Shown: in pieces, positions 187 through 39,034 of the stretch
How the letters are laid out: every line of letters starts with the position of its first letter
How positions within the stretch are numbered: position 1 is the first letter of the stretch
Source of the DNA: Candidatus Eiseniibacteriota bacterium
Lineage (GTDB): Bacteria > Eisenbacteria > RBG-16-71-46 > JABDJR01
Direction of reading: 5' to 3'
DNA: 64,000 nt
NCBI GenBank assembly: GCA_963783375.1
Contig: CAWANH010000029.1
Location: 1,344,001-1,408,000 of the forward strand
The notes under the pieces: generated by a model
Database searches by the model: none
What the model was told of the DNA's origin: nothing
The model's input: the letters and a program-made list of their open reading frames with translations, nothing else
Translations under genes and position numbers: made by a program

Positions 187-2769
187 TCAGTGATACTGAT
201 TCTTGAGCCTTCCCCAGGTCGTCTTGACGGTGGGGGTGACCACGCTGGTGCAGGGGTTGAATCCGCTAGTGGCGCCGAAGGCGACGAACCCGGCGTGCCC
301 CGGGTACGCCATGTCGGAGAGCGCCGGCCCCGGGCAGTCCACGATCTGGAATTCGTCCGGAGTGTGCAAGTTCCGGTTCATGTCCACCCGGAACACGTCC
401 GGGCCGTAGGCGTACACGTAGAACGCGCACACCGTCACGTGCACCCCGTAGGGGGGTAGCTCGTGCCGCTGGCAGTTGTCGGTCCGCACCCAGATCAGCC
501 GGTTTCCCCCGCCCGCAGCCGGGAAATCGGTGCTGGAATCCCCGCTGTTCACGCCGTTGGTGTACTCGAGGTCCGAACAGGACACATACCCGAACACGTC
601 GCAGGCTTGTCCGTCGGTCTGGACACCGGCGGTGTTCCCGTATTGCACCCCCAGGCTCACCCCGCTCACCCCGAAGACCGGGTCTGCCTGGGCAATCACG
701 AAATACACGTCGGCTGGGGATTGGATCGGCCACCCCGTGGTGAACTGGTCGCACCGCAGGTTCGGGTCCAGGGCCGCGCAGTCCAGACCCTTCAGGTTGT
801 GGGCCCGGACATGAACGGTCACCACCGCCCGGCTCTGATCCCCCATTCCCCCCCCGGAAGTCCCGGTGGTGAAGCTCACGGTCGAATTCGGAGCGATCGC
901 GTTCCCCGACGCGTCCTGAACGTTCGAAACCTCCACCGTGTAGGAGGTGCTGGCACCCAGGACCGTGGTCAGGGACAACGTCACCTGGGACCCGACCGCC
1001 GTCGCCGAGTTGATGGTGAGGGTCCCCGCGGGATTGGCGGTCGGGTAGACGGCGTAGTTCGGCACCGCGGTCGCGCCCAGGGCCACCGGCTCGCTGAACC
1101 ACACCACCACGGCGTTGGCGCCGGTCGCCCCGGCGGCGTTGGTGAGGGTCGGCGGGGTGGTGTCCACGGTCCCGGTGGTGAAGCCGGCGGTCGAACCCGG
1201 AGCGATGGCGTTACCCGCCAGATCCTGGACGTTCGAGACCTCCACCGTGTAGGCCGTCGACGAGGCCAGGTTCGAGGCCAGGGTGAGGGTCACATTGGAC
1301 AGGGAGGGCGCGGCCGAGTTCACGGTGAGCGGCGACGAAGGATCGGCGGTGGGGTACACGCTGTAGTTGGCGGGGACGTCGGCCCCGGTCCCCACCGTCT
1401 CGCTGAAGCTCAAGCTCACGGTGTTCTGGCCGGAGGTTCCGGTGGCGCTTACCAGCTCGACGGGGGTTGCGTCCCCGGGACCGGTGGTGAAGCTCGCGGT
1501 CGAGTTCGGCGCGACCGGGTTCCCGGCCGGGTCCTCCACGTTCGAGACCTCCACCGTATACGAGGTCGATCCGGCCAGGTTCGGGGACACGGTCAGGGTG
1601 ACGCTATTGTTCAAGGGCGAGGCCAACGTGACGGTCAGGGGCGAGCCGGGATCGCCGCTCGGGTACACGCTGAAGTTGGAAGGCGTGCCGGCCCCGCTGG
1701 ACACGTTTTCACTGAACGCCACGACCACGTGGTCGGTCCCGGCGGCGCCGGAAGCGCTCACCAGGGTGGGGGGCGTGGTGTCCAGATAGCCGGTCACGAA
1801 GCCGATGGTCGAGTTCGGCGCGATCGTGTTCGCGGACAGGTCCTCGACGTTCGAGACCTCCACCGTATACGTGGTGGAACCGGCCAGGTTCTGGACCAGG
1901 GTCAGGGTGACGATGTTGAGGGACACCGCCGCCGAGGTCACGGTCAGGGGGGACGAGGGGTCGCCGGTCGGGTAGACGGCGTAGTTGGATGGGGTGGTGG
2001 CCCCTCCCGACACGGCCTCGCTGAAGGTGATCGAGACCGTCGGAGATCCCGCGGTCCCCGAGGCGCTGATCAGGACCGGCGGGGTCAGGTCCCCCGTTCC
2101 GCCGGAGCCGCAGGGGTTGTACCCCGGCTGGCCGAATCCGACCTTCCCGGCATGGCTGGGATATTCCAGGTCCCAGCCGGCGGGAGTCGGACAGTCGATG
2201 ACCTGGAGCTCGGGCCCGTTCAGCAGATTCTCGTTCCGGGTCACCTCGAACTCGTCGGGACTGTAGGCGTACACGTAGAACACGCAGGCCACCGCGTGCG
2301 CCCCGTCGCTCCCCCGCACCGTCTGCTGGCAGTTGTAGGTGCGGACCCAGATCAGCCGGTTCCCGCCCCCGGAGTACGGCCATTCGTGGGCCACGGTCCC
2401 GTCGGGGCTGTTGGTGTACTCGAGGTCGGAGCAAGCCGTGTAGCCGAAGACGTCACAGCCGATGCCGTCGTTTATGGTGACCGGGTTGGAATACCGGATG
2501 CCGCAGCTCACGCCGCTGATTCCCAGAACCGGGTCGGCCTGTCCCACCACCAGGTAGACATCGGCGCCCGTAGCGAGCGGCCAGGTCGTGGTGAAATCGC
2601 TGCAAGGGAGATTGGGATCCAGCCCGGAGCACACGATCCCCTTGGTGTTGTGGGGCTGGGCGTGGAGGACGACCTTCGCCCCGGTCTGGCCGATCTGGGC
2701 CGAGGCGGGAGCGGAGAGGACAAGGCTCACGAGGGCAAACAACGAGAGGATACCCAGGGTCGGCTTCAA
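187..2769 (-). CDS. Secreted protein: Cys-rich domain, four Ig-like (Big_5/SbsA-like) repeats, second Cys-rich domain, C-terminal TTWGRLKNQYH tail
   Basis: GGAGG RBS before TTG at 2769; signal peptide ending ASA-Q; four ~103-aa repeats starting D(L/T/A)TP; the Cys-rich domain (GGGNRLIWVRTxNCQ...YNPC/FNPC) occurs twice. Confidence 0.9.
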   Translation of the reverse strand: MKPTLGILSLFALVSLVLSAPASAQIGQTGAKVVLHAQPHNTKGIVCSGLDPNLPCSDFTTTWPLATGADVYLVVGQADPVLGISGVSCGIRYSNPVTINDGIGCDVFGYTACSDLEYTNSPDGTVAHEWPYSGGGNRLIWVRTYNCQQTVRGSDGAHAVACVFYVYAYSPDEFEVTRNENLLNGPELQVIDCPTPAGWDLEYPSHAGKVGFGQPGYNPCGSGGTGDLTPPVLISASGTAGSPTVSITFSEAVSGGATTPSNYAVYPTGDPSSPLTVTSAAVSLNIVTLTLVQNLAGSTTYTVEVSNVEDLSANTIAPNSTIGFVTGYLDTTPPTLVSASGAAGTDHVVVAFSENVSSGAGTPSNFSVYPSGDPGSPLTVTLASPLNNSVTLTVSPNLAGSTSYTVEVSNVEDPAGNPVAPNSTASFTTGPGDATPVELVSATGTSGQNTVSLSFSETVGTGADVPANYSVYPTADPSSPLTVNSAAPSLSNVTLTLASNLASSTAYTVEVSNVQDLAGNAIAPGSTAGFTTGTVDTTPPTLTNAAGATGANAVVVWFSEPVALGATAVPNYAVYPTANPAGTLTINSATAVGSQVTLSLTTVLGASTSYTVEVSNVQDASGNAIAPNSTVSFTTGTSGGGMGDQSRAVVTVHVRAHNLKGLDCAALDPNLRCDQFTTGWPIQSPADVYFVIAQADPVFGVSGVSLGVQYGNTAGVQTDGQACDVFGYVSCSDLEYTNGVNSGDSSTDFPAAGGGNRLIWVRTDNCQRHELPPYGVHVTVCAFYVYAYGPDVFRVDMNRNLHTPDEFQIVDCPGPALSDMAYPGHAGFVAFGATSGFNPCTSVVTPTVKTTWGRLKNQYH

Positions 2770-3283
2770 GGTCAGCCTCCTTTCCGGTGAATCGATCACG
2801 GTGGGGGGCCAGGATCGACCTTGCTCCATCTTTTTAGCCCTTTGCCCGAGGATTCACAAGCTTCGAATTGCCCGAAGGGCACGGCGGCTCGATTGTGGCC
2901 GGTGGCTGCGCCGCCGCACCGGAGCCTTGGAGATCATTGGGCGGGAGGGCCCGCGTCGGGGGACGGCGCAACGGGTCCCGGGCGACGGCACAGCGAGTCC
3001 CGGGGGACGGCGCGGTCGGCGTCGGCGGACGGGGTGACCGGCGCCGGTTCCCAGCTGGACGCCCCATGGGGGGACCTGCAACCCGGGAATCGCCCGGGCC
3101 AAGGGCTTGAATCGCGTCCCCCCACTTCAAATATATTAGACGATGTACAAGCCGTCGGTTACGAAAAAAACGGCGTGGGGAGCCCCGGTTCGGCCCGCGA
3201 ACGGTGGGCGGCGCCGACGTCGAAGGCGACCGGATTTGTCCTCTTGCACGGGCGGTTTCAGGTGCGGGCCGTTCGGTCCCGCC

Positions 3284-3466
3284 GTGCTTCCCCGGGGAAG
3301 CAATGTTCGCAATAAAGCTCCGGTCGCGATCCCCGGCCGATAACCCCCGCGTGCTTCCCCGGGTACACAATGTTCGCAATAAGGCTCTGGCCGTGCTTCC
3401 CCGGGTACACAATGTTCGCAATAAGGCTCTGGCGGTGCTTCCCCGGGGAAGCAATGTTCGCAATAA
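3284..3466. repeat. Four copies of a 32-bp repeat GTGCTTCCCCGGG(GAAG/TACA)CAATGTTCGCAATAA
   Basis: Copies start at 3284, 3351, 3393 and 3435. The last three have a 42-bp period. Copies 1 and 4 contain the perfect palindrome TGCTTCCCCGGGGAAGCA. Confidence 0.9.
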
Positions 3467-3494
3467 CGTGTTTATCGCGACGCGGCCTTTGAGA

Positions 3495-4290
3495 CGGTCC
3501 GCGTGCGGGTGGCTGGTCCGGAGCCCGGAGCGCGACCGCGCGGGGCGGCCTGCCCCGGAGCGAGGCGCGAATCGGATACCGCGGTGGGCGCCTCCGACGA
3601 GCCGGCGGCGAGACGGAGGCGGGGTCCCACCGCGGGGGCCGAGCGAGCGAGGAAACGTCCGGGGGACGTTTCGAGCGAGCGCTGAGCGCCGAGACGAGGG
3701 GGCACCGGCCCGAAGGCCGCGTGCCGGCCGGCCGCGCCTCGGGCACGCCCCCTGAATCGGTCCGCGTGCGGGTGGCTGGTCCGGAGCCCGGAGCGCGGCC
3801 GCGCGGGGCGGCCTGCCCCGGAGCGAGGCGCGAATCGGATACCGCGGTGGGCGCCTCCGGCGAGCCGGCGGCGAGACGGAGGCGGGGCCCCGCCGCGGGG
3901 GCCGAGCGAGCGAGGAAACGTCCGGGGGACGTTTCGAGCGAGCGCTGAGCGCCGAGACGAGGGGGCACCGGCCCGAAGGCCGCGTGCCGGAGCCCGCCCG
4001 CCGAGACGGCCCGTGTGCGAGCGGCCGCCCCGGGATACCCGGCCCGAAGGCCGCGTGCCGGGCCCGCCCGCCGAGACGGCCCGTGTGCGAGCGGCCGCCC
4101 CGGGAGACCCGGCCCGAAGGCCGCGCCTCGGGTCCGCCGCACCCGGGACTGCGTTTGGAACCGCGCCAGGTAGCACGCCGGGGGCACCGGCCCGAAGGCC
4201 GCGTGCCGGACCCGGCCCGCGCCTCGAGGTCGCCCCCTGAATCGGTCCGCGTGCGGGTGGCTGGTCGGAGTCCCGGAGCGCGGCCGCGTG
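3495..4290. repeat. Nested palindromic (REP/BIME-like) repeat tract
   Basis: ~263-bp duplication (3495 vs 3758, partial third copy near 4243); ~70-bp tandem unit at 3968-4125; CCGGCCCGAAGGCCGCG hairpin core at 3705, 3968, 4039, 4109 and 4187. Confidence 0.85.
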
Positions 4291-4332
4291 CCGGCCGCGT
4301 GCCGGGGCCGCCCGCGCCCAACCCCGTCCCCG

Positions 4333-4370
4333 AATAAAGAGAGCGGCGGCTCCGTTGGGAGCCGCCGCCC
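4333..4370 (-). terminator. Intrinsic terminator of the 4430-5176 gene
   Basis: Minus strand reads GCGGCGGCTCC-CAAC-GGAGCCGCCGC followed by TCTCTTTATT. Confidence 0.75.
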
Positions 4371-4429
4371 TTTCGATCAGATCTTCGGCCTGGACCGAAG
4401 AACCAAACCGTTCGACCGGTGAGGGTCGA

Positions 4430-5176
4430 CTAGTTGTACTGGTTCTTCAGGTGACCCCAGGTGGTGTTCTCGGTCGGGGTCGAGATGTCGGTACAAGGAT
4501 TGTACTCGGCACCGGTGCCGCCGAACGCGAGCACGCCCGCATGGGCCGGCCAGTCCATGTCGGAGAGCGCAGGACCGGGGCAGTCCACGATCTGGAACTC
4601 GTCCGCGGTCACCAGGTTCCGGTTCATGTCGACGATGAAATTGTCCGGGCTGTAGGCATAGCAGTAGAACACGCAGGCCACGGCCTGAACGCCGTAGGGA
4701 GCCACCACGTTCCGCTGGCAGTTGGTGGTCCGGACCCAGATCAGGCGGTTTCCGCCGCCGGACCAAGGGAACTCGTCCACCGCGGTCCCGGACGGGCTGT
4801 TGGTGTACTGAAGGTCCGAGCAGAACGTGTAACCGAACACGTCCACGCCCACACCGTCAGTGATGGTGTCGTACTCGCTGTACAGAACGCCAAGGCTCAC
4901 GCCGCTGACGCCCAGAGCCGAGTCGGCCTCGGCGATCATCATGTACACGTCGGCGCCGGTTCGCAGCGGCCAGGTGTTGACGAACTGGTCGCAGGGCAGA
5001 GCGGTGTCGATCCCGCCGCACTGGATACCCTTGGTGTTGTGGGCCTGGGCGTGGAGCGCGACCATCGCACCCTCTTGGCCGTTGTGGATCTGGGCGAAGG
5101 CGGATCCGGCGAAAACCATGCCGACTACCGCGGCGATAGCGGCTGCTTTCCCCATCGTCATTAGCACGCGCTTCAT
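4430..5176 (-). CDS. Secreted single Cys-rich-domain protein with C-terminal TTWGHLKNQYN tail (paralog of 187-2769)
   Basis: GGAGG RBS; signal peptide MKRVLM...SAFA-Q; closely similar to both Cys-rich domains of 187-2769. Confidence 0.9.
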   Translation of the reverse strand: MKRVLMTMGKAAAIAAVVGMVFAGSAFAQIHNGQEGAMVALHAQAHNTKGIQCGGIDTALPCDQFVNTWPLRTGADVYMMIAEADSALGVSGVSLGVLYSEYDTITDGVGVDVFGYTFCSDLQYTNSPSGTAVDEFPWSGGGNRLIWVRTTNCQRNVVAPYGVQAVACVFYCYAYSPDNFIVDMNRNLVTADEFQIVDCPGPALSDMDWPAHAGVLAFGGTGAEYNPCTDISTPTENTTWGHLKNQYN

Positions 5177-5429
5177 GAGAGGAGACCTCCTTATTGCGAT
5201 ACGCATCGTTGCGAGAGACTCTCTTTGGTTTGCTGCGGTTCCTCAGGAAACCGCGTCCCCCGGGAGCGCTCCCGGAGGGCTTTTCGGCCACCGGACTCCC
5301 CCGCCGGGAAGCCGACGGGGGGCCCGGGTCCGAAAACGTTGTCCGGCAGTCATCCGACTGCGGGAACTTGATACCCAGTAAGTCTACCAGAGATCAAGCC
5401 CCCCAGCCAAGGGCCATTTGCCGACCAGG

Positions 5430-6170
5430 TTACGGGCAGACGCCCATGACGTGGCAGATCAGGCTCTTGGAGTTCTTGATGTAGTCGGCCGCGATGGACG
5501 CGTCCGCACCGGAACCGCCGTCCCCGTAGTCGTGTCCAGTCACGCCGCCGGTGTAGTCGCTGCAGAGATCGACCAGACCGTTCTTGAACTGGGGCGCGTG
5601 GTAGGCGCCGTCGTTCGCCGAAACGGTGCTGACACCAGCCTCGCAGGTGCTCTCTCCGTCGGGGTTGACCTGCGTGTAGGTGCACTTGTGGCCGACGCCG
5701 TTCACCACGTCGGGCGAATTGACCTGGGACTGGCGCAACGGCACGAAGTCGGCATCGATCTGCGTGATGTACAGGGTCCCGTTGGCGGCTGCGTAAGGGG
5801 CGTTCTCGATGCAGGCGCCGCCGGCGATGTTGAAGGTAGCTTCCCCGTTCGCGTCGGCCACCGCCGTGTAGGTCCGGTAGGGCTCGTCCGTGCACTCCAG
5901 GTGAGAGGGTGCGTCCCCAAGCTGGAGGGGATCGGACCAGGCAATGAGCCGGGTGGCGTCGGGCGAGAACGTGATGGTCACCACCGCGCCCTGGACCGGC
6001 CCGAGCTGGCCGTTGACGACGATGACGACGGGAAAGTTGCCGTCCGGGGTGATCGTGATGAAGTCCGGAACGACGCTGAGACTGGCGTCAGGAATGTTGG
6101 CCATGGCCCCGGTGGACACGATGGCGAGGGCCGCCGCCGCGATGAGGCCGGCACGAAGGAAACGAGTCAT
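5430..6170 (-). CDS. Secreted hypothetical protein: Ig-like N-terminal part plus degenerate dockerin/EF-hand-like C-terminus
   Basis: GGAGG RBS; signal peptide MTRFLR...GAMA; motifs SPD...VSANDG and CSDY...DGGSGADASI; several Cys. The dockerin-like call is by eye only. Confidence 0.8.
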   Translation of the reverse strand: MTRFLRAGLIAAAALAIVSTGAMANIPDASLSVVPDFITITPDGNFPVVIVVNGQLGPVQGAVVTITFSPDATRLIAWSDPLQLGDAPSHLECTDEPYRTYTAVADANGEATFNIAGGACIENAPYAAANGTLYITQIDADFVPLRQSQVNSPDVVNGVGHKCTYTQVNPDGESTCEAGVSTVSANDGAYHAPQFKNGLVDLCSDYTGGVTGHDYGDGGSGADASIAADYIKNSKSLICHVMGVCP

Positions 6171-6436
6171 GGATGCACCTCCGAGTTGATATGCGCTGTA
6201 TCGTCGCTCTACGGGTCCTGGAAGACCCCGATAGGCTTCGGGAACGTCGAGCGGTGGCGGAAATCCGTTGGTCCCCCCGGGGAACCGCCGCCGGTGAACC
6301 GACCCTCTCGGGCCGCCTCCGGTGGCGCTTCGGGAGATTTGCCATCCCACGGTCGCGAGCCACCGCCCGCTCCCAGGAGCCCCCAGGGCCGGTCTTCAAG
6401 GACCCAACCGTCTCCGGGGATCTCCAGGCTGTGAAC

Positions 6437-6465
6437 AGTGTAGGCGGGGGTTAACGAAATGTCAA
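6437..6465 (-). promoter_or_regulatory. Sigma70-type promoter for the surface-protein cluster
   Basis: TTGACA-17 bp-TACACT on the minus strand, in an AT-rich patch. Confidence 0.7.
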
Positions 6466-6521
6466 GGAAACTTTAAGGGGACTTCACATTCAGGGGGGGA
6501 TCCGGCCCCCCTTCCAAGGGG

Positions 6522-6598
6522 TGGTGGGCGAAACAGGGTTCGAACCTGTGACCTCTTGCGTGTAAGGCAAGCGCTCTAACCAGCTGAGCTATTCGCCC
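6522..6598 (-). tRNA. tRNA-Val(TAC) with encoded CCA
   Basis: Reverse complement GGGCGAATAGCTCAGCTGGTTAGAGCGCTTGCCTTACACGCAAGAGGTCACAGGTTCGAACCCTGTTTCGCCCACCA folds as a canonical cloverleaf. Confidence 0.97.
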
Positions 6599-6894
6599 TT
6601 CTGCGGATCCTCCCCCGTGGCGGCGGCCCCACGCTCCCCCCGGCCCGCGGCCAGGCCGTAGGGGACGAGCACGCAGTACCCCAGGACGAGGAGGATGGGG
6701 GCGGCGGTGATCGACCCCCGGCTCAAGAGCAAGAACCCCAGCAGGATGGACACCAGGGCCCCGGCCAGGGCCAGGTAGTTCCGGTTCCCCAGCACCAGCC
6801 CGGCGGGGGCGGAGCGCGGGCGGGCCCGGTCGGCGGCCGCGCCCCCGGTCTTGTGAGCCTTGCGGGGTCGGACCTTGGTCGTTTCGTTCACCAC
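6589..6894 (-). CDS. Small membrane protein, DUF3098-like
   Basis: GGAG RBS then GTG; NY...GFLLL...SITAAPILLVLGY two-TM pattern; the stop codon lies inside the tRNA 5' end. Confidence 0.75.
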   Translation of the reverse strand: MVNETTKVRPRKAHKTGGAAADRARPRSAPAGLVLGNRNYLALAGALVSILLGFLLLSRGSITAAPILLVLGYCVLVPYGLAAGRGERGAAATGEDPQKGE

Positions 6895-6955
6895 GTGAGG
6901 ATCTCCTTCCGGCCTAGACCGGCGCGAGGGGGCATTCCCCCACCTCCGCCTCGTT

Positions 6956-7975
6956 TCAGGGCGGCCCCGGGGCACGACGGGCCTCGCGGCGGCGGTACTC
7001 CTCGGCCCGCTTCCGGTTCCGGCGGTGCTCGTCGAAGTCCCGGGCGAACAGATGGGTGCCGTCCCCCCGGGCCACGAAATACAGCTCCTTGGACTCCGGG
7101 GTCGGCCAAAGAACCGCCCGGAGCGAACCGAGCCCCGGGCTTCCGATCGGACCCGGGGGAAGCCCGGGCCACCGGTACGTATTATACGGGGAAGGGTTCT
7201 CCAGGTCTTCCAGGAGGGTTTTCGGCCGCCGTTCCCCGAGAGCGTAGTTTACGGTGGGATCCGCCTGGAGCGGGAGCCCCACACGGAGCCGGTTCAGGAA
7301 GACCGCGGCGATCCGGGGCCGCTCCTCGGGCACCCGGGCCTCCGCCTCCACGATCGAGGCCAGGGTCACCACCTGGTTCAAGTCGAGCGGCGTCGATCCC
7401 GCCCGCGCGGCCAGATGCGTCCGCCAGACCCGGAAGAACTGGCCCACCATCTCCCGAACCGCCTCCCGGGCCGGGGAGCCGGGAACGATCCGGTAGGTGT
7501 CGGGGAACAGGTAGCCTTCGGCGGTCGGGCCGGGGACCCCCAGGGAGCGGACGAAGGCGCTGTCGGTGGCCGCGGCCATGAAACTGTCCGCGCCGCCCTC
7601 CACCCAGGGGTCCACGCGCCGGGCGATCTCGGCCATCCAGAGCCCTTCGGGAATGGTGACCGAGGTGTCCTCGACGTCTCCCGCGGCCAGCCGATTGACC
7701 AGCTCCCACGCCCACTCGTCCGAGGACCCGCGGTAGGGTCCGGCCTTCAGATCCCTGGACTTCCCCATGACGACGGCCAGAGCGGAGAACGCCCGCCGCT
7801 CGCGAATCAGCCCCACCCCGTGCAGGGTCACCGCGATCTCGGACAGGCCCTCCCCCGGCTCCACCACGAAGGAGGTCTCGTAGGGGTGGGACGGCTGGAC
7901 CGGGGAGAGGAGCGCGAGGAGGAACGCCAGGATCCCGGCCGCCAGGACCACGGGCAGGAGCCGGAGCTTACGCAC
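6956..7975 (-). CDS. mltG: Endolytic transglycosylase MltG
   Basis: TIPEG, EGYLFPDTY, LASIVEAE, LQADPTV and SPYNTY...GLPPGPI motifs. Confidence 0.95.
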   Translation of the reverse strand: MRKLRLLPVVLAAGILAFLLALLSPVQPSHPYETSFVVEPGEGLSEIAVTLHGVGLIRERRAFSALAVVMGKSRDLKAGPYRGSSDEWAWELVNRLAAGDVEDTSVTIPEGLWMAEIARRVDPWVEGGADSFMAAATDSAFVRSLGVPGPTAEGYLFPDTYRIVPGSPAREAVREMVGQFFRVWRTHLAARAGSTPLDLNQVVTLASIVEAEARVPEERPRIAAVFLNRLRVGLPLQADPTVNYALGERRPKTLLEDLENPSPYNTYRWPGLPPGPIGSPGLGSLRAVLWPTPESKELYFVARGDGTHLFARDFDEHRRNRKRAEEYRRREARRAPGPP

Positions 7976-8393
7976 CCCGCTCTCCCCGGGCCGCCGCCGC
8001 GAGATGCTCCTCCAGGAGCAGCAGGGCCGCGGTCTGATCCACCCGTCCCGGCGCGGGGCGGGTCTCTCCCCGCTCCCGGAGGAAGTCCCGGGCCGCCTCG
8101 GAGGTCAGGCGTTCGTCGAGGTAGCGGACGGCGAAGCCTCCGGCGGCCAGCGCCGCCCCCAGCTTTCGCGCCCGCGCCGCCGAGGCCCCCTCGCTGCCGT
8201 CCATGTTGAGGGGGAGCCCCACCAGGACCAGGTCGGCGCCGGTCTCCCGGGCCGTCTCCAGAACCTTCGAGGCGGCCTCGCGCGCGCTGTGAACGGCCAG
8301 GGTGGGAAGCGGCCGCGCCACCACCCCGGTGGGATCGCTCACCGCCAGCCCCACCCGCTTCGTTCCCCAGTCCACGGCCAGGACCCGCGTCAC
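7968..8393 (-). CDS. ruvX: YqgF/RuvX family nuclease (pre-16S rRNA processing)
   Basis: VLAVDWGTKRVGLAVSD, VGLPLNMDG, DERLTS and VDQTAA; GTG start overlaps the upstream stop. Confidence 0.93.
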   Translation of the reverse strand: MTRVLAVDWGTKRVGLAVSDPTGVVARPLPTLAVHSAREAASKVLETARETGADLVLVGLPLNMDGSEGASAARARKLGAALAAGGFAVRYLDERLTSEAARDFLRERGETRPAPGRVDQTAALLLLEEHLAAAARGERGA

Positions 8394-8818: not shown

Positions 8819-8849
8819 GTGTCCACCCTTGGGGTCAGGCATGGTCGGG

Positions 8850-11255: not shown

Positions 11256-14200
11256 TCAATCCTTTTTCTCGAGTCGCACGGTGACCCGCGCCCCCTCCAC
11301 GTCCCACGCATCGTCTTCCGGAACCGGCGGGCCGAGTTCCAGCTCGTCGGCCAGAAGCTCGGCCTGCATGAATCCCCGGTGCTCCCCGGCCGCCTCGGCC
11401 AGGGGGCCTTCCGCCCCCACCCGGACCCGGACCCGGTCGGTGATGGCCAGGCCCCGCTCCTTGCGGAGGTTCTGGAGCCGGTGCACCAGCTCCCGCACCC
11501 GCCCCTCCCGCTCCAGGGCGGGGTCGAGCCGGGTGTCCAGAGCGACCCGGAGCCCTCCCTCCTCCATCGCGGCCAGGCCTTCCCTCGCGGTGGTCTCCAC
11601 CTGGATCTCCTCGCCCCCCACCCGGACCGGCTCCATACCCTCGGGGGCCACCAGCCAGGAGGCCTCGGCCAGGCCCGCCCGCACCGCCTCGGCGTCGAGG
11701 GCCTTGACCGCCGCCGCCACCCGGTTCACCTCGCCCCCGAACCGGGGCCCCAGCGCCTTGAAATTCGGCTTCAGACGCGCGTCCATCAGGGACTCGGAGT
11801 CGGTGAATTCTACCCGCTTGACGTTGATCTCGTCCCGGATCACTTCGAGAAACTCCTCGTCCAGCGCTCCTCCCCCCCCCGCCACCAGCAGCCGGGCCAG
11901 GGGTTGGCGCACCTTGATCCCGACCTGGGTGCGGGCGGCCCGTCCCAGCTCGGTGATCCGGAGCGCCCGGTCCATGGCGGCTTCCAGGGCGGGATCGCGC
12001 CGGTCGTCGCCGGGGGCGGGATAGCGCGCGAGGTGGACGCTCTCGACGGCGCCGGAATCATACGGAACCACGAGGGCCCGGTGCAGGGTTTCGGAGAGGA
12101 AGGGTGCGAAGGGGGCGACCAGCCTCGCCACCGTGCCCAGAACCTCGTGGAGGGTGGCGTATGCCGACTCCTTGTCCGGCCCCCGCTCCCCCTTCCAGAA
12201 CCGGCGGCGGCTCCGGCGCACGTACCAGTTGGAAAGCTCGTCCTGAACGAAGGCGGAAAGGGTGCGGGCGGCCCGGGTCATCTGGTACCGGCGCAGATCC
12301 TCGCGCATGGAGACGGAGACCGCGTCCAGCCGGGCCAGGAGCCAGCGGTCGAGGACCGGGCGCTCGGCGAACGGGGGCGGCTCCCCCGGGGGCGTCCAGC
12401 CGTCCACGTTGGCGTAGGTGGCGAAGAAGGACGCCACGTTCCTGAGGGTGCCGAAGAACTTCCGGGCCGCCTCGGTCACCCCCTCGCGGGCGAAGCGGGT
12501 GGTGACCCAGGGCGGGGAATTGGCGGTGAGGTACCAGCGCAGGGCGTCGGCCCCCTCCGCCTGGAGCACGTCCCAGGGATCGACGGTATTGCCCAGGCGC
12601 TTGGACATCTTCCGGCCCTGATCGTCCAGGATCAGCTCGTTGGCCACCACCGCCTTGAACGGGGCGCGTCCCTCCACCAGGGTGGCGATGGCCAGGAGCG
12701 AGTAGAACCAGCCCCGGCTCTGGTCGATCCCCTCGCAGATGAAGTCCGCGGGAAAGCTGTGGCGGAAGACGTCCTCGTTCTCGAAGGGATAGTGCCACTG
12801 GGCGAAGGGCATGCTCCCCGAGTCGAACCACACGTCGGTGACCTCGGGGATGCGCCGCATCTCCCCGCCGCACTCCGGGCAGGGGAAGACCACCCGGTCG
12901 ATGAACGGGCGGTGGAGGTCGTCGGGAACCCCGGCCCCCCGGTCGGCGATCTCCTTCCGGCTCCCGATGCAAAGGGTATGGGCGCATTCCTCCGCCCCGC
13001 AGCGCCAGATCGGAAGCGGGGTGGCCCAGAAGCGCTCACGGGAGATGGCCCAGTCCACGTTGTTGTCGAGCCAGTTCCCGAACCGGCTCTTCCCCACCTG
13101 GGGCGGGAACCAGCTCACCCCGGCGTTCTCCGAGAGCATCTTCTCCTTGAGCGCGGTGGTCCGGAGATACCAGGAGTCCCGGGCGTAGTAGAGAAGGGGG
13201 GAATCGCAGCGCCAGCAGAAGGGATAGCTGTGCTCGTGGTCCTCGCGCTTCACGAGCAGGCCCTGTTCATCCAGGAAGGCGATGATCTCCGGGTCCACCT
13301 CGCGGACCTTCCGCCCGGCGAAGACGGGGACGTCGGCGGTGAAGTGGCCGGTGGGATCCACGGTGTGGAAGGCGGGAAGGTCGAGCTTCATGCCGAGGGT
13401 GTAGTCGTCGGCCCCGTACATCACCGCGGTGTGAACCACCCCGGTCCCCTCCTCGGTGGTGACGAAGTCCGCGTCGGCCACGTAGTAGGCGCGCTTGCCG
13501 GTTTCGGCTTCGAGGTCCAGTCCCTCGAAGAGGGGCCGGTAGCGGAGGCCGACCAGGTCCGCGCCCTTGAACGTTCCTCGACCACCTCGGGGGCTTCCTC
13601 GTGGTGGGGCCGTTTCAGGACCTCCAGGCGGTCCTTGGCCAGGACGAGGTACTCGGTCTTCCCGGTGCGGGGGTTCCGCTCCCGCACCTTCACGTAGTCG
13701 ATGTGCTTCCCGACGGCCAGGGCCACGTTTCCGGGGAGGGTCCAGGGGGTGGTGGTCCAGGCCAGGATGTAGGTATCGGGCTGGTCCACCACCGGAAATC
13801 TCACGGTGACCGAGGGATCGACGACGGTCTTGTAGCCCTGGGAGACCTCGTGGTCGCTGAGCGCGGTCTGGCAGCGCGGGCAATAGGGCACCACCTTGAA
13901 GCCGGCGTAGAAGAGCCCCGCGTCCCAGAACCGCTTCAGGAGCCACCACACCGTCTCCATGTAGTCGTTTTCGAGGGTCACGTAGGGGTGCTCGAGGTCG
14001 AGCCAGAACCCGATCCGCTCGGTGATCCGGTCCCACTCGTCCTTGTACTTGAACACGCTCTTCCGGCAGCGGGCGTTGAACTCGGCCAGCCCGAAGCCCT
14101 CGATCTGGTCCTTCCCCTCGATCCCCAGCTCCTTCTCGACCTCGATCTCCACCGGGAGGCCGTGGGTGTCCCAGCCTCCCTTCCGGCGGACCTTGTACCC

Positions 14201-14473
14201 CTCCATGGTCCAGAAGCGGCAGACCAGGTCCTTCACCGTGCGGGAGAGGACGTGGTGAACGCCGGGGCGGCCGTTGGTGGTGGGCGGGCCTTCGAAGAAG
14301 ACGAAGGGCTTCTCCTCGGGGCGGTCCTCCATGGACTTCCGGAAGATGTCCCGGTCCCGCCAGAACGCGAGGACCCGCTCCTCCTCGGCGGTGGCGGAAA
14401 GCCCGGTGTCGAACGCCGGGAACGGGGGCGCAGGCTGGTCGGGCGCGTTGGGCGTGGCGGGACGGTCGGTCAT
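11256..14473 (-). CDS. ileS: Isoleucine--tRNA ligase (type 2), split by an apparent 1-nt indel near 13575
   Basis: EGPPTTNGRPGVHH, GWDTHGLPVE and WTTTPWTLP in one frame; GTGVVH, DWAISRER and KMSKRLGN in another frame. Confidence 0.93.
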
Positions 14474-15355: not shown

Positions 15356-15393
15356 GTCGGTCTCCTAGGTCATGAGGCGGTTTGATTGTCTCG

Positions 15394-24068: not shown

Positions 24069-24770
24069 TTGTCCTATCACATGGATCGTATCTCGAGCCC
24101 GTGGGCCGGGTTCCCGGCCCACGCATTTCTGGCCGCCACGTTCCTGGCCGTCTCCCTGGTCTGGCTCCCCGGCGCCGCGCAGGCCGCCGCCGTATCCGCG
24201 GAATTCAATCCCTCCTCCGGGAACTCCAGCTACGGGGGTTTCGGGAAGGACGGCTCGATCGACAGCCGGGCGCAGATCTTCCTGGCCACGGTCGGAGGCC
24301 GGGTGGACAGCGTGTCGCTCCGGGTGTCCCGCGACGTGGAGAACGCCGGCGACCTGGTGATCGCGATCGCCGAGGCGGACACCGGCGGGCTTCCCACCGG
24401 CGATCCTCTCGGGAGCATCACCGTCCCCGAGGCGGAGGTCCAGCTCAACACCTACGCCCTCCAGACCTTCTCCTTCGGGGACACCGGCCCGCTGCTGGTG
24501 GCGGGACGGAAATACGCCATCGTGGTCACCCCGGTCACCCTGAACCCCGACACCTCGCCGTTCGGCCTGAACGGGGCGAACCACGAGAGCGTCGACTACC
24601 CGGACGGGAACTCGGCCTACCGGCTCGGGGCCGGCGCGGCCTGGAACTACACCGACATCACCAACTACGTCTTCCGGGTCGTCGTGGACGAGACCACCCC
24701 GGTGGAGCGGACGAGCTGGGGCGGGGTGAAGCGGCGCTTCGGCGGAACTCCCGGGTCCCCTGCTCCCTGA
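24069..24770 (+). CDS. Secreted beta-rich protein with C-terminal TPVERTSWGGVKRRF tail
   Basis: GAGGAGG RBS then TTG (alternative ATG at 24081); signal ending AQA-A; domain resembles choice-of-anchor-R-like modules (AQxF...GxKYAIVV). Confidence 0.8.
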   Translation: MSYHMDRISSPWAGFPAHAFLAATFLAVSLVWLPGAAQAAAVSAEFNPSSGNSSYGGFGKDGSIDSRAQIFLATVGGRVDSVSLRVSRDVENAGDLVIAIAEADTGGLPTGDPLGSITVPEAEVQLNTYALQTFSFGDTGPLLVAGRKYAIVVTPVTLNPDTSPFGLNGANHESVDYPDGNSAYRLGAGAAWNYTDITNYVFRVVVDETTPVERTSWGGVKRRFGGTPGSPAP

Positions 24771-31106: not shown

Positions 31107-31159
31107 CGAAACACCTCAGATAGGACTCAATGGATGCGGGCCCGAGGAGGACCGTGCGG

Positions 31160-32971
31160 TCACCCCGCGGCCGGCGTCTCGGTGATCCCGGCCAGCTTGC
31201 GGGCCATGTCGCGCTTGGGGACCAGGTCCCCCTTCCGGGTGGCGATCCCGATGCCGTCGCGAAACACCCGGGCCGCATCGTCGTTTCGACCGAGCTTCAT
31301 GAGGCAGGTTCCGAGGTGGTTCATGGCCATGCTGTAATCGGGCTGGCCCTCGACCGCCTTCCGGAAACACGGGACCGCCTCTTCGTATCGCTCCAGATCG
31401 AGGAGGATCTTCCCCAGTCCGAAGTTGGCGATCACGTCCTCGGGGTCCATCTCCAGTACCCGGCGGAAGAGTCCGATGCGCTCCTCGAGTTCGGCCCGGC
31501 GCCGTTCGGTGTCCGCCTGCGCCCGGCGCTCGGCTTCCTTCTCCCCCATCTCGCGTTTCCAGATGAGGTAGGTCACCCGGCCCTTGATTTCCTCCGCCTC
31601 CTCGATCAGGCCGCACTGGGCGCAGTACCGGCTCAGGTTCGTCCACGCCATGACGTGGCCGGGGTCCATCTCGGTGAGGGCGCGCATGGTTTCGATCGCG
31701 TCGTCCAACCGTCCGAGCCGTTCCTGACTCACCCCCATCGATTCGAAGGCGTCGGCGTGGCGCGGGTTCATGAGGATCGCGCGCTCGAAGAGGCCGAGGG
31801 CCTCCTCGAACCGGTCGGAGCGAAAGGCCTCCATCCCGCGGCGATAGAGGACCTCGGCCTGCTCGGCCGGTCCCGGCGGCCGGTAGAGCGGAAGCTCCTG
31901 CACCACCGCGGGCACCATGGCGCCGTCGAGGTTGAGATGGACCACCGTGCCCGGCTCGATCGCTTCGCGCCTCACCATGGCCAGGGCGATCGGTCTTCCC
32001 AGGTTGGGGGAGAGGCAGGCGCTCCGGCTCTCCCCCACCGGGGCCTCGTCCACGAGGAGCAGGGCGCCGGCGGGAGGCGGCGTCCCGCCCTCGATCACGA
32101 TCCCGGCCAGAAACCGGTTCACGTGACCGCGGGAGTGGACCCGGGCCACGGTCTCCTGGCCGAGGTAACAGCCCTTGTCGTGGGAAACCATCCCGCCGCG
32201 GCCCAGCTCCAGGATCAGGGTGCGCCCGTCCATGTCGACCCCGAAGGCCGGGCGCCCGCCTTCGATGCGGAGGATCTCCAGGGCCTCGGCCCCGACCTCG
32301 ACGAGCCCATGTTCCCGACCCGCGGCGGTGAGCGCGTCGCGGACCGGCGCCAGGTCCGACCGGGAAACGAGGAGCCGCCCCCCCACGTCTCCGGTCCAGG
32401 GGTCGGCCACGAACCGGACCGGACGGCTTCCCAGCCGGATCTCCCGGTGAAGGTAGGGATCGAGATCGACACGGTTCCCCGAGGCGGCCAGGAGAAGCGC
32501 CGGGGTCTCGGGGCCGTGAAGCTCCAGCGCCGCCCATTCGCGGCTCAGGTCGGTGAAGCTTGCCCGCTCGCGAAACCGATGCTCCTCGAAGCGGGCCAGG
32601 AGCCCGGCCAGGAGATCGGGCCGGGCGAGAAGAAGCATCGTTTCGCCGAGGTTCAAGAGATGGAGATCGGCGGAGATCCGTCCCTTGCGATCGAGGTAGG
32701 CGGTGTAGGCCCCGCTCCCGGGTTCCATGGCCGCCACGTCCACGGGAAGCTGGGCCTGGAGAAAGCTCACGCGATCGGGTCCGGCGACCTCCGCCACCGC
32801 CACCAGTTCGGTCCGGCCGAGCGCCACCCGGGCGCGCGCGGCCCGGGCCTCGGCGGCGGGATCGGAAGCGCGCGCGGGCGGAGAAGGCGCGGGGGGATCC
32901 GGCGAACCGGCGGGCGTCGAGGGACGGGCGGGATCCGGGAAGACGGGAGAACCGGCGCGGTCCGGGGTCAC
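31160..32971 (-). CDS. ygfZ: YgfZ/GcvT folate-binding protein fused to C-terminal TPR repeats
   Basis: GPDRVSFLQ, LRIEGG and the KGCYLGQE signature, then ~200 aa of TPRs; GTG overlaps the iscA stop. Confidence 0.88.
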   Translation of the reverse strand: MTPDRAGSPVFPDPARPSTPAGSPDPPAPSPPARASDPAAEARAARARVALGRTELVAVAEVAGPDRVSFLQAQLPVDVAAMEPGSGAYTAYLDRKGRISADLHLLNLGETMLLLARPDLLAGLLARFEEHRFRERASFTDLSREWAALELHGPETPALLLAASGNRVDLDPYLHREIRLGSRPVRFVADPWTGDVGGRLLVSRSDLAPVRDALTAAGREHGLVEVGAEALEILRIEGGRPAFGVDMDGRTLILELGRGGMVSHDKGCYLGQETVARVHSRGHVNRFLAGIVIEGGTPPPAGALLLVDEAPVGESRSACLSPNLGRPIALAMVRREAIEPGTVVHLNLDGAMVPAVVQELPLYRPPGPAEQAEVLYRRGMEAFRSDRFEEALGLFERAILMNPRHADAFESMGVSQERLGRLDDAIETMRALTEMDPGHVMAWTNLSRYCAQCGLIEEAEEIKGRVTYLIWKREMGEKEAERRAQADTERRRAELEERIGLFRRVLEMDPEDVIANFGLGKILLDLERYEEAVPCFRKAVEGQPDYSMAMNHLGTCLMKLGRNDDAARVFRDGIGIATRKGDLVPKRDMARKLAGITETPAAG

Positions 32972-33312
32972 ACCGAGAAGGACTCCCCGCAGCCGCAGGA
33001 ATTCTCGGCGTTGGGATTCGAGAAGACGAACCCCTTGCCGGAGAGCCCGCTCTGGTGATCCACGGTGATCCCCTTCAGGTAGAGGAGGCTCTTGGGATCG
33101 ATGAACACCCGGGTTCCGCCATCGAGGTCCATCACCGCGTCGCCGGGCTCCTGGAGGGTGAACTCCAGCTTGTAGGAGAGACCGGAGCACCCGCCGCCGG
33201 CCACCCCCAGGCGGAGGCCCACGCCCTCCCGCCGGTCCTCGGCCAGGAGCCGGGCCACTTCCCGGCGGGCGGAGTCGGTCAGATGGGCGATCGCGGTCTG
33301 GGTTTCAGCCAT
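32968..33312 (-). CDS. iscA: A-type Fe-S cluster carrier (IscA/SufA/HesB)
   Basis: GGGCSGLSY and NPNAENSCGCGESF. Confidence 0.95.
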   Translation of the reverse strand: MAETQTAIAHLTDSARREVARLLAEDRREGVGLRLGVAGGGCSGLSYKLEFTLQEPGDAVMDLDGGTRVFIDPKSLLYLKGITVDHQSGLSGKGFVFSNPNAENSCGCGESFSV

Positions 33313-33474
33313 GTCGTAAGTGCTCCTCGGGTTGATCGGGTCGCCCCGGCGGAGGCCCGCCGGGAATCACGACAAAGATTATACACATTCCGGGCGAAGG
33401 CCGATCCATGCAGCCACAAGCCATTACCCCACAATTGATTGCGGCCTACGGGGTCTGGAGGAACGGGGCGAAGA

Positions 33475-33789
33475 TTATTTGTAGCGGTAGGTGATCCGGC
33501 CTCGGGTGAGATCGTACGGGGAGAGCTCGACCGTCACTTTGTCCCCATTCAGGATGCGGATGAAGTGTTTCCGCATCTTCCCGGAGATGTGGGCCAGGAT
33601 TTCGTGACCGTTCTCCATGCGGACCTTGAACCGGGCGTTGGGAAGGCTGTCCACCACGATCCCCTCGACCACCACCGCGTCCGGCTTTTGCGCCGGACCC
33701 GTGGGCGTGGCGGTCTGATCGGCCGTCTTCTTCTTCTTCCGGCTGAGCTGGCGCTTCTTCCCCCGGCTTATCCTTCGTTTCCTTGCGAT
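33475..33789 (-). CDS. infA: Translation initiation factor IF-1 with basic N-terminal extension; start probably non-AUG
   Basis: [54 protein letters not shown]; AAGGAGG SD lies 5 nt before an in-frame ATC at 33789. Confidence 0.92.
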
Positions 33790-34072
33790 GGCAACCTCCT
33801 TGGGGTGGGGAACCTCCGAGGCTCCCTCGACCCATTCATTCTTCCGCGGGGCTTCGACGAGCCGCGCGAACACGCAGTCGAGCAATAACCGATTCAGTGT
33901 AGCGCATCCGGGGAATTTGCGGCAGTGGCGCCGCCCCCGGCACTTGCGGCATAGTGGAGGCGGTGGCCCGAGCGGACCCGGGCCCCCTCCGAGGCCCCCT
34001 GCCTCCCCATGAGACGTCAAACTTACGGTTTTTCAAGTAGTTACATCCCATCGACTCCGGAGGAGTACCGCC

Positions 34073-35656
34073 ATGAACCTGCCCTCCTCAAGACTCCGGC
34101 GCACCGGATCCGTCCATGCCCTCCTGGCCGGGCTGGCCGCGGCCGCGCTCGCCGCCCTCACGGCCCCGGCCGGGGCCGCCGTGGTCCTGCCCACCGACTT
34201 CGCCGACCAGCTCGTCATATCCGGCCTCGACCAGCCCACGAGCTTCGTCTTTCTCCCCGACGGGCGGGTGGTGATCACCGAACAGAACACCGCCGACGTG
34301 GAACTCCTGGTGAACGGGAGCCTGGCCCCCTCCCCCATCCTCCACATCCCCGACGTCAACACCTCGGGCGGTGAGCGGGGGCTTCTGGGGGTCGCGATGG
34401 ATCCGGGATGGCCCGCCCGCCCTTACCTCTATTTCTACTTCGACCGCACGCCGGGGAACGTCAACTACGTGGCCCGCTGGACGGCGACCGGCGACCTGAG
34501 CGACGGCTCCAGCGCGAACCTGACCCTCGGCGATCGCTACGACATCCTCACCGACATTCCGGACAACGCATCGAATCACAACGGGGGGACGCTCCGCTTC
34601 GGGCCGGACGGATTCCTCTACGCGAGCGTGGGCGACGACGCCGACCAGTGCCAAGCCCAGGACCCGACCACGCTGCAGGGAGCGATCCTCCGGCTCGACG
34701 TGTCGGGCCTCCCCGCCGGCGCGGGCGGTCCGCCGGCCAAATTCGCCATCACCCCCGGGACCAACCCCTTCGCCGGGGGAAACGCCAACGCCGGCCTCAT
34801 CTATTGCTACGGTCTCAGAAATCCGTTCCGCTTTCACGTGGACCGCTGGCCGGGACGCATCTATATCGGCGACGTGGGGCTCAGCACCTACGAGGAGATG
34901 GACGAGGCCCGCCCCGGCGACAACCTCGGCTGGCCCTGGCGCGAGGGGCCGCTGGTGCGCGCGATATCCGCCTGCCCCGAGCCCGGCGGCTCCGGGACCC
35001 AGACGTTCACCGATCCCATCGCCTACTACCTCCGGAGCTCCGGTTCGTGGGCGGTCATCGGCGGCCCGATCTACCGGCCGGTCTCCGGAGGCGCCTACAC
35101 CTTCCCCACCCTCTACGACGGGGTCGTGTTCTACGCCGAGTACTACCACGGGTTCATTCGCGCGCTGAAGCGGGTGAACGGAACCTGGGGGCCGTTGGCC
35201 CCGGTCTCCGGCCAGCCCAACGCCACCGACTGGGCCACCGGAATCAACAACATCGGCGACTTCGGCCTGGGGCCGGACGGGGCGATCTACTACGCTCAGC
35301 AGTTCCCGGGATCGCTTCGGCGAATCGTCTACACCGGCACGGTGACCGGGGTCCCGGATCGGCCGACCGGGCCCACCCCGTCGATCCGCGTGGGACCGAA
35401 CCCGTTCTTCGCCGGAGGGGCGCCGGCCCGGGTGGAGTTCGCGGGGACGGGCGAGGGCGAGGTCCGGATCGGGGTATGGGACGTGACCGGGCGCCGGGTG
35501 AGGTCGCTGTACACCGGGGATCCGGGGGAAGCGGGGGGCGCGACGGCCTGGGACGGCCGCGACGACCGCGGGAGCGCGGTCCCGCCGGGGATCTACTACC
35601 TCCGCGTGGAGGGGCCGGGGGGGGCCGCCTCGACCCGGGTGGCGCTTCTGCCCTGA
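34073..35656 (+). CDS. PQQ-dependent (glucose/sorbosone-type) sugar dehydrogenase-like protein with C-terminal FlgD-Ig-like domain
   Basis: ERGLLG, NHNGGTLRFGPDG and GLRNPFRF; tail GPNPF...WDGRDDRG..VPPGIYY. Confidence 0.88.
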   Translation: MNLPSSRLRRTGSVHALLAGLAAAALAALTAPAGAAVVLPTDFADQLVISGLDQPTSFVFLPDGRVVITEQNTADVELLVNGSLAPSPILHIPDVNTSGGERGLLGVAMDPGWPARPYLYFYFDRTPGNVNYVARWTATGDLSDGSSANLTLGDRYDILTDIPDNASNHNGGTLRFGPDGFLYASVGDDADQCQAQDPTTLQGAILRLDVSGLPAGAGGPPAKFAITPGTNPFAGGNANAGLIYCYGLRNPFRFHVDRWPGRIYIGDVGLSTYEEMDEARPGDNLGWPWREGPLVRAISACPEPGGSGTQTFTDPIAYYLRSSGSWAVIGGPIYRPVSGGAYTFPTLYDGVVFYAEYYHGFIRALKRVNGTWGPLAPVSGQPNATDWATGINNIGDFGLGPDGAIYYAQQFPGSLRRIVYTGTVTGVPDRPTGPTPSIRVGPNPFFAGGAPARVEFAGTGEGEVRIGVWDVTGRRVRSLYTGDPGEAGGATAWDGRDDRGSAVPPGIYYLRVEGPGGAASTRVALLP

Positions 35657-35878
35657 ACGGGGCAGGGCAGGCTCTCCCCGCCGGCGGACCCGGGAGGTCG
35701 CGGGGCTCCCGCGGCGGGGTGCGCGAGGCGGGGCGGCGATTGCGCGATACCGGGGGCGGGCCGATCCGGCGGCGGGAGGCGGGGTGCGCGAGGCGGGCCG
35801 ACGGGGTATAATACCGCTCCCTCGTTCCGGCCTCATCAACCACCGGATCCGCTCAGGTATCCGCGTTCTGGAGCTAGC

Positions 35879-37939
<2,061 letters not shown>

Positions 37940-38135
37940 ATCAGGGAGGCTCCCCGGAGTGAGGCGGTTGGCAGGAACGGAAGCGCCCACGGCGGCGTCG
38001 AAGCGGATTCGGCGGCCCTCGGAGGCGCGATCGGGCCCATGAACACGGGGCGGGCGCCGGCAACGGCGTCCGCCCTTTCTCATTGGTCCGTGCTGCCCCG
38101 AATTCGTTCCGGCACGCCGCTCGAATCTCACTCGG

Positions 38136-38164
38136 TTGCAAATTCAGTAAATTGTGGTTAAATT
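38136..38164 (+). promoter_or_regulatory. Sigma70-like promoter for the 38309 gene
   Basis: TTGCAA-17 bp-TAAATT in an AT-rich patch. Confidence 0.5.
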
Positions 38165-38308
38165 CAGAGGTTCCCGCGTCCGGGCCCCCGGGAACGGCTT
38201 CGCACCGCCACTCAGGCCGCCATCGCCGGCCAGGGCCCCACCGGGAGCGCGCGGCTCTACGCACTCCGGGCCCGCGTTCCTCTCCATCATCCAACAGGGA
38301 GAAACCCA

Positions 38309-39034
38309 ATGCATCCCAACGGCTACGCAAGGCTATTCCGGGTTCCCACCCTCCGACGTCCGCTCCCCGTCCTCGTCGCGGCGCTCCTCCTGGGAGCGGC
38401 CCTGACACCGGAGGTCCCGACCGCCTCCGCCGGCACCATCGTCCTCCACAGCGGGAACGGTTCGGTCGGCGACATGGATTCGCAAATCACCTACCTGCAG
38501 GAACCCTCCCTCCCCTGCTGCAGCGAATTCCTCCCCTTCACCTCCGCCGACTTCCTCGCCGCCCAGACCGGACCGCCGGCGTACGTGCGAGGCCCGTACG
38601 CGGGGTGGATCACGGGTCTGGCCTGCGACCCGACCGCGCGGTGGATCGCCGAGGATACGAACAACGACACGCACACCACGCTCTACGCCTACCCCTTCGA
38701 CGTGGACACCTGCTGTGTCGCCGGCGCGAACCTCACGTTCTGCTGGGCGGTGGACGACTATCTGGGCGGCGCCTCGAACAACCCCGCCGGTGTGTACCTC
38801 AACGGGGACCCCCTGACCTCGATCTCCGGTGGGGGCATCGGCACGGAGTCGAGCGTCGGACCCGTGGACGTGACCTCGATGATCCAGTGCGGCCGGAACT
38901 GGCTGTACGTCTACGATCGCGACACCTCTTCGATCGTCAGCGGCGTCATGTTCAGCGCCACGCTGGACATCACCCCCTGCATCGTACCCACCCGGCCTAC
39001 GACCTGGTCCACGATCAAGACGATGTATCACTGA
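38309..39034 (+). CDS. Secreted Cys-containing beta-sandwich protein with C-terminal PTRPTTWSTIKTMYH tail
   Basis: Signal peptide ending ASA-G; ARWI, AVDD...VYLNG and GRNWL motifs suggest a jelly-roll/lectin-like fold. Confidence 0.82.
   Translation: MHPNGYARLFRVPTLRRPLPVLVAALLLGAALTPEVPTASAGTIVLHSGNGSVGDMDSQITYLQEPSLPCCSEFLPFTSADFLAAQTGPPAYVRGPYAGWITGLACDPTARWIAEDTNNDTHTTLYAYPFDVDTCCVAGANLTFCWAVDDYLGGASNNPAGVYLNGDPLTSISGGGIGTESSVGPVDVTSMIQCGRNWLYVYDRDTSSIVSGVMFSATLDITPCIVPTRPTTWSTIKTMYH

Follow-up and report, generated by a model that had tools for sequence, protein, structure and literature searches.

Short sorting signals without a transmembrane helix are rare in prokaryotes. The tripartite signals include PEP-CTERM with its exosortase (TIGR02595), LPXTG, GlyGly-CTERM, and MYXO-CTERM, and the dockerin-cohesin and SLH-type systems are non-covalent tethers in which a portable terminal module, with repeated copies, serves many passengers. 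[quoted passage not shown] In the available excerpts of the literature, PorU is described as cleaving at X/(GSA)(VLI) (PMC4560394), and the shortest T9SS CTDs described, those of Prevotella intermedia, are 43 to 55 amino acids (aa) long and retain motifs B, D, and E on three beta-strands; they show that a T9SS signal can be reduced and that residues at position +1 of the cleavage site can be relaxed (PMC11969387). Here we report a conserved peptide of about 17 residues, the TWG tail, first seen in a 64,000-nucleotide stretch (the window; contig CAWANH010000029.1, G000:C29:1344001-1408000 in our numbering) of the 4.73-Mb, 97% complete genome of a Candidatus Eiseniibacteriota bacterium (assembly GCA_963783375.1). 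Like the type A CTD, the tail ends unrelated passengers that have Sec signal peptides; unlike it, the tail has no beta-sandwich and keeps none of the three motifs retained even by the short P. intermedia CTDs. The tail is a real, portable, uncatalogued tag, and we lean towards a link between this tag and the T9SS.

A conserved peptide ends about seventy proteins, most predicted to be exported

A sequence-only reading of the window had pointed to four proteins of three unrelated passenger types with a common tail. All four open reading frames (ORFs) are real and end as claimed, and BLAST places the proteins in three clusters. Two on the minus strand belong to one family: an 860-aa exported protein (187..2769), consisting of a family domain, four Ig-like (Big_5) repeats, a second family domain, and the tail in its last 20 codons (190..249), and a 248-aa exported protein (4430..5176) with one family domain and the tail (4433..4492). 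Two are on the plus strand. A 229-aa exported protein (24081..24770, with an alternative TTG start possible at 24069) has an unrelated domain, the tail (24684..24743), and then a nine-residue extension, and a 241-aa exported protein (38309..39034) has a tail (38972..39031) that begins directly after the invariant last Cys (residue 224) of its domain. A signal-peptide-like N-terminal segment is present in all four by a crude test on the sequence.

Genome wide, about seventy proteins, most of them small, end in this tail of 17 residues, with the consensus P-[VT]-P-[TV]-E-x-[TS]-[TS]-W-[GS]-x-[ILV]-K-x-[LQR]-Y followed by 0 to 13 residues. The regular expression of the sequence-only reading has 61 matches in 37,892 six-frame ORFs, 56 of them no more than 20 aa from the stop. 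A position-specific scoring matrix, applied at 15 bits or more, gave 71 matches, of which 66 are distinct and 69 are C-terminal, although positions no more than 25 aa from a stop make up only 13% of those in ORFs; a hidden Markov model built from 39 tails gave 72. Small and large contigs share a few duplicate copies; subtraction of five matches without a gene in a simple gene call, and of one N-terminal match, left 65 proteins for counting. Signal peptides were predicted by a crude heuristic (not SignalP) in 59 of these 65, compared with 1186 of 3399 other genes. Both the C-terminal enrichment and the signal-peptide co-occurrence are supported. The W, K, and Y of the tail are near-invariant and fixed in spacing, and the distance from tail to stop is also fixed, at Y+0 to Y+2 in 56 of 69 cases. 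Synonymous codon choices vary, with Ser drawn from both AGY and TCN codons, so the constraint is on the protein and an origin as a DNA repeat is ruled out.

The tail proteins fall into 39 passenger clusters by BLAST. When 37 of them were scanned against Pfam and NCBIfam, few family matches were found (Big_5, lamin-tail, beta-helix, and X25/choice-of-anchor X, with weak matches to cohesin and PepA), and none lay on the tail. A profile of one family of tail proteins (f9) matched no gene in this genome at an E value of 0.05 or less. Neither do the tails themselves match the catalogues: none of 90 tails matched an NCBIfam model at E ≤ 0.1, no PDB sequence matched the tail profile at E ≤ 10, and an ESM Atlas query with the tail returned no usable match. 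A literature search, which did not cover subscription journals and supplements, found no description of the tail, in agreement with the earlier view that it has no catalogue entry.

The tail also lacks a transmembrane helix, as had been proposed: no transmembrane segment is predicted in 61 of 65 mature tail proteins. This feature, together with the W, the Y, and a mean net charge of about +1.8 from W to the end, would suit a short basic-aromatic segment that binds membrane, lipopolysaccharide, or peptidoglycan directly, without a protein reader. We consider such direct binding improbable. The segment comprises only about 8 residues and shows no helical amphipathic peak (mean hydrophobic moment 0.34 at 100 degrees versus 0.46 at 160), and the positional conservation of T-T-W-G and K over four phyla suggests a stereospecific partner.

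The proposal that the signal is lineage specific did not survive, since the tail occurs in three related groups of phylum rank and in Poribacteria. It was matched in 147 of 151 genomes of this phylum (the highest per-genome count in this set being at least 59), in 80 of 81 genomes of the phylum that includes a record titled Krumholzibacteriia, and in 12 of 12 genomes of a third, small phylum; in a control phylum it was matched in 2 of 61 genomes, at one site each. In one family of this phylum, each genome has only 0 to 5 copies, borne by three families of small exported proteins. Across GTDB genomes, a scan for the pattern found at least 121 loci; among the matches listed, the titles are mostly Eisenbacteria, Poribacteria, Krumholzibacteria, Latescibacteria, or unnamed, and none is Bacteroidota. 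Records titled Gemmatimonadota and Fibrobacteraceae fall in tail-bearing groups. In a library clustered at 50% identity, at least 1,788 cluster representatives match the tail at E ≤ 0.001, and 149 of the best 150 matches end, by eye, within 10 residues of the C terminus. The tag marks 1 to 2% of genes in organisms of four uncultured phyla, and through it proteins without annotation, in their thousands, are identified as envelope cargo.

The tail, the T9SS CTD, and PEP-CTERM end the same domain

Homologs of the 241-aa protein differ in how they end. Among 29 of them, 24 have the TWG tail, one has a T9SS CTD (28.8 bits with TIGR04183, cut-off 23), and four have, by eye, VPEP followed by a hydrophobic and a basic stretch; all three types of end begin at the same junction. 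One of the four PEP-CTERM-like proteins scores above the TIGR02595 cut-off, one has no match, and two were not scanned. The suggestion that this domain has cousins with PEP-CTERM is thereby upheld. For the 229-aa protein, whose domain had likewise been compared with PEP-CTERM modules, only two close homologs were found, both with the tail. Because the domain of the 241-aa protein ends in the tail, a CTD, or PEP-CTERM in different homologs, the tail behaves like a C-terminal sorting signal, and it is a member of neither the CTD nor the PEP-CTERM families. In this genome, a CTD-bearing BLAST relative exists for 7 of 65 tail proteins.

The tail resembles PEP-CTERM in that it is short and C-terminal and is found on many small domains that are exported, and one of its passengers carries a choice-of-anchor X domain. 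Its replacement of PEP-CTERM on the domain of the 241-aa protein would be expected if a transpeptidase of the inner membrane, akin to exosortase, rhombosortase, or sortase, acted on it. This is the least probable of the explanations that we weighed: unlike PEP-CTERM, the tail has no transmembrane helix, hydrophobic run, or basic cluster, none of the 90 tails matches any NCBIfam model, and a regular-expression search found no PEP-CTERM-like ends in this genome, in which no search for exosortase genes was made.

Links to type IX secretion

TIGR04183 has 96 matches in the genome, which also encodes SprA, 13 proteins matching the PorV family, and, adjoining PorV, a PorU-like enzyme with the His and Cys residues, which scores 401 bits, just below the cut-off of 420. 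A PorV ortholog is present in 41 of 41 relatives, PorV and C25 matches occur in all five of the other tail-bearing genomes examined from other phyla, and SprA-like ORFs, below cut-off, occur in 3 of 3 Poribacteria-type genomes. Of the PorK/L/M/N motor, the one component searched for, GldM (TIGR03517), was found in none of five genomes, in a search in which control genomes also scored under the cut-off, so that it had no positive control.

Several features of these genes stand by themselves. SprA (G000:C29:765039-771319) is split over frames, probably by an assembly frameshift. Most PorV-family genes have a neighbor that codes for a protein whose CTD is divergent, which suggests that carrier and cargo form cognate pairs, and two stand apart (C29:452812, nearest to PorV2, and C3:124111). 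PorV is followed by an exported DUF5683-like pair (L178:11710-12507 and 12605-13414), homologs of which lie beside PorV in Krumholzibacteriia-titled and Poribacteria-type genomes; consideration of this pair yielded no link.

Within this genome, the tail and the CTD are distributed as two separate tags. None of 66 tail proteins also has a CTD (compared with 118 CTD genes), and neither TIGR04183 nor PF18962 matches a tail protein. Tail proteins have a median length of 229 aa, versus 638 aa for CTD proteins, and 55 of 59 are under 350 aa, versus 10 of 75 (P = 3e-17). Tail genes are only slightly nearer to CTD genes than other genes are (13/60 versus 490/3378). The CTD linkers of this genome contain T-[GAS]-[VI] in 35 of 88 cases against a background of 4.8%, and the TWG motif is absent from them. 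The front of the tail, [TV]-[PA]-[VT]-E in this genome, resembles the PorU cleavage linker in its [TV]-x-[VT]-E pattern.

The two tags meet in Poribacteria. There, 17 of 41 genomes contain 19 sites at which the tail lies in frame between a cleavage-type linker and a full CTD. In these fusions, whose passengers are FG-GAP-like and WD40-like by eye, [TV]-[AS]-V-E-P-x-G-K-x-x-x-T-W-G-x-I-K runs straight into the NYPNP motif of the CTD, so that the tail is the stretch between the cleavage motif and motif B. Terminal Poribacteria tails have a front like that of the fusions, with A or S at +1 in 19 of 27, matching the PorU site. In an AlphaFold2 model of a Poribacteria tail plus CTD (15 rows), the sandwich is predicted confidently from residue 53 onwards, and residues 1 to 52, including the tail and the NYPNP stretch, fall below a predicted local distance difference test (pLDDT) score of 50.

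The match between the tail and the pre-CTD linker in Poribacteria could mean that the tail is a functionless vestige of repeated CTD truncation. We think this very unlikely, given that the tail is more conserved than ordinary linkers, keeps its fixed distance to the stop, and persists both on 39 clusters and in genomes with only 1 to 5 copies, and given that the CTD linkers of this genome are without TWG.

A second PorU-like protease is a candidate reader

A second PorU-like gene (G000:C29:1325027-1329202) lies 15 kb ahead of the window. Its product is a full-length PorU paralog (24% over 1168 aa) that has a His/Cys dyad, itself ends in a CTD-like segment, and scores 195 bits with NF033707, below the cut-off. 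Two tail genes just before the window, together with the genes for the 860-aa and 248-aa proteins, form an array 12.6 to 20 kb upstream of this gene on the same strand. Between the array and the protease lie membrane-protein and sulfatase-like genes, labeled by eye; those at G000:C29:1329381-1341802 we take to be prenyltransferase-like, SurA-like, large membrane/TPR, and sulfatase/phosphodiesterase-like genes, and they could make or modify the anchor. Several genes of this interval recur in 5 to 10 of 20 relatives.

The second protease, used as a query, has a match in 49 of 50 genomes, strong in this phylum and in two related phyla. Its catalytic His is aligned in 25 of 26 orthologs; the rows were chosen by a Cys-His regular expression, with which 4 of 30 loci fell out, and the conservation of the Cys is therefore not an independent count. 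In 20 upstream regions of 8.5 to 20 kb, picked for long contigs from the 49 genomes with a match, a tail gene is present in 16 and lies within 6 kb in 7, against a background in this genome of 21% of 20-kb and 7.5% of 6-kb windows. These regions contain 37 tail genes, 36 of them on the protease strand and 18 homologous to the first family of the window. In six further genomes, selected from all three phyla because the link was already visible in the listed rows, a tail gene lies 0.2 to 5.2 kb upstream of the second protease. A tail gene stands within 1.5 kb at 2 of 30 second-protease loci and at none of 29 PorV loci or 29 loci of the barrel protein described below. From this gene linkage, we tentatively put forward the second PorU-like protease as the best candidate for a direct reader of the tail. 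In one genome (G008:C12:19515-27828 and G008:C49) the second PorU-like gene is present three times, with two of the copies in tandem.

The sequence-only reading had assigned the tail to machinery yet to be identified. This stands insofar as the reader is only a candidate; the evidence nevertheless points to a T9SS-type apparatus. The account that we favor, as one that is just probable, is of a sorting signal that is linked to the T9SS, serves small cargo, and either arose from the CTD linker or is fused to it. After Sec export and removal of the signal peptide, as the sequences suggest, a passenger of about 200 residues would fold and leave the tail free, judging from its start right after the last conserved residue of the domain. 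The tail would be the cleavage-site linker of a T9SS CTD minus the beta-sandwich, an architecture seen in the Poribacteria sequences, and the Eisenbacteria form is probably homologous to it, since both have the core T-W-G-x-[IL]-K and the front [TV]-x-V-[ED]. Small cargo may be routed by a T9SS-associated receptor on which the W/K/Y core docks, and large cargo by way of the CTD. The second PorU-like enzyme, of the C25 type, might then bind the tail and, like PorU, cleave in the front linker and join the passenger to a surface glycolipid; with Pro at +1, it might instead hold the passenger uncleaved. These last steps are suggested by the gene linkage. A bolder proposal, which we regard as possible but not probable, is that the four uncultured phyla have a second, CTD-free branch of the T9SS, in which a 17-residue peptide that serves at either protein end directs small cargo to its own PorU-type sortase, with apparently no GldM motor. 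If the T9SS-linked account is correct, the tail would be the smallest such signal, it would be clear why two tags of one cell divide their cargo so cleanly by size, and a conserved second PorU paralog would gain a function. Now that a candidate enzyme is named, the question can be addressed in vitro, with no need of a culture.

Evidence against the T9SS-linked account, and docking as an alternative

A number of observations weigh against this account. At the putative cleavage site of the tail, +1 is Pro in 59 of 69 cases in this genome, and the +1 residues described in the available excerpts of PMC4560394 and PMC11969387 do not include Pro. PorV, as excerpted, is modeled as binding CTD motifs B, D, and E (PMC11969387), all of which are missing from the tail. 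No in-frame tail plus CTD was found in this phylum in the 33 loci read, which came from the 61 genomes, out of 201, that matched the pattern, and the comparison set contains no T9SS-positive, tail-negative phylum. As to the second protease, 4 of the 20 upstream regions have no tail gene, and the genomes, besides having been picked for long contigs, are akin and not independent, so that the linkage represents one inherited arrangement and not 16 events. Five Poribacteria-type genomes match the second-protease query at the level of an ordinary PorU only (best E values 1e-25 to 1e-37), five genomes without a detected tail have the second protease (G023, G130, G150, G152, and G340), and a genome with 31 tails (G046) yielded none with this query.

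The position of some copies points the same way. The tail is not strictly C-terminal, as had been supposed: one family, in four distinct sequences, carries the tail core directly after the signal peptide, and in three lipoprotein-like library proteins (P0042, P0044, and P0086) the tag occurs either four times in tandem or twice, once internally and once at the terminus. By a crude test, 6 of 66 tail proteins are predicted lipoproteins, and three similar lipoprotein-like tail genes lie in tandem at G000:C28:946861-948916. A single C-terminal transpeptidation has no need of N-terminal, tandem, internal, or lipoprotein copies. Together with the Pro at +1, such copies favor a recognition tag whose core is independent of position and for which cleavage is optional.

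The N-terminal examples form a single family (L014:4422-5093, minus strand; L258; L260/L268). Its members consist of a signal peptide, the TWG core, a pro-domain, and a C-terminal Ala/Cys-rich hydrophobic peptide, and by eye, with no family match, they look like bacteriocin precursors.

These same observations give rise to the main rival to the T9SS-linked account, namely that the tail stays on the protein and docks non-covalently, in a dockerin-like role, tethering small modules to a periplasmic or surface scaffold protein. Docking would be independent of CTD-type cleavage, and the links to the T9SS would reflect shared ancestry and shared cargo. It would accommodate the prevalence of Pro at +1, the N-terminal placement on bacteriocin-like precursors, the four tandem copies and the internal copies, the predicted lipoproteins, and the near-invariant W, K, and Y with their fixed spacing. 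By analogy with dockerin and SLH modules, the tail would be a portable terminal module with repeated copies and many passengers; unlike them, it is much shorter and has no profile match, no dockerin or SLH model of Pfam or NCBIfam having matched among the 37 tail proteins and 90 tails. Docking leaves unexplained the mutual exclusion of tail and CTD, the in-frame position before CTDs, and the linkage to a C25 protease, and no search was made for a scaffold with repeated receptor domains. We view docking as a possible explanation, albeit not a probable one.

A predicted large barrel in the PorU-PorV operon

The PorU-PorV operon also encodes an uncatalogued outer-membrane protein of 1119 aa (G000:C29:148380-151739; L178:14381-17737). 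AlphaFold2 predicts a very large beta-barrel (pLDDT 82.9) with, by our own count, about 38 long strands. The best fold matches are structures of the SprA translocon (E = 1.7e-10, with template-modeling scores of only 0.23 to 0.26), and a profile of the barrel matches only SprA in this genome. The barrel is present in 39 of 41 relatives, no more than 10.3 kb from PorV in 30 of 30 same-contig cases, and occurs also in two Poribacteria-type genomes and on many low-GC metagenome contigs. It may be a second translocon of compact form or a T9SS component not described before. The idea of a translocon specific for the tail was set aside: 117 of 119 metagenome loci have homologs of the barrel, 94 of them under 45% GC, and the barrel is thus probably far wider in distribution than the tail, with the proviso that the taxa of these loci were judged from GC only, 32 proteins from them having given no taxon-diagnostic family.

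Other features of the window and genome

The window also contains proteins of the other tag class. A 494-aa exported protein (49071..50555, plus strand) ends in a T9SS type A CTD and has no TWG tail, and the same is true of the CTD-ended gene at 34073-35656. Two genes are split over frames, probably by assembly frameshifts: an aminoacyl-tRNA synthetase-like gene in the window (11256-14473) and, elsewhere in the genome, a paralog of the 860-aa protein gene (G000:C28:705482-708056). Near the end of the window (58839-63962), two large genes, which begin with peptidase-like and GAF-like stretches, come after a gene for a membrane-fusion-like protein, an arrangement that by eye resembles an export cassette.

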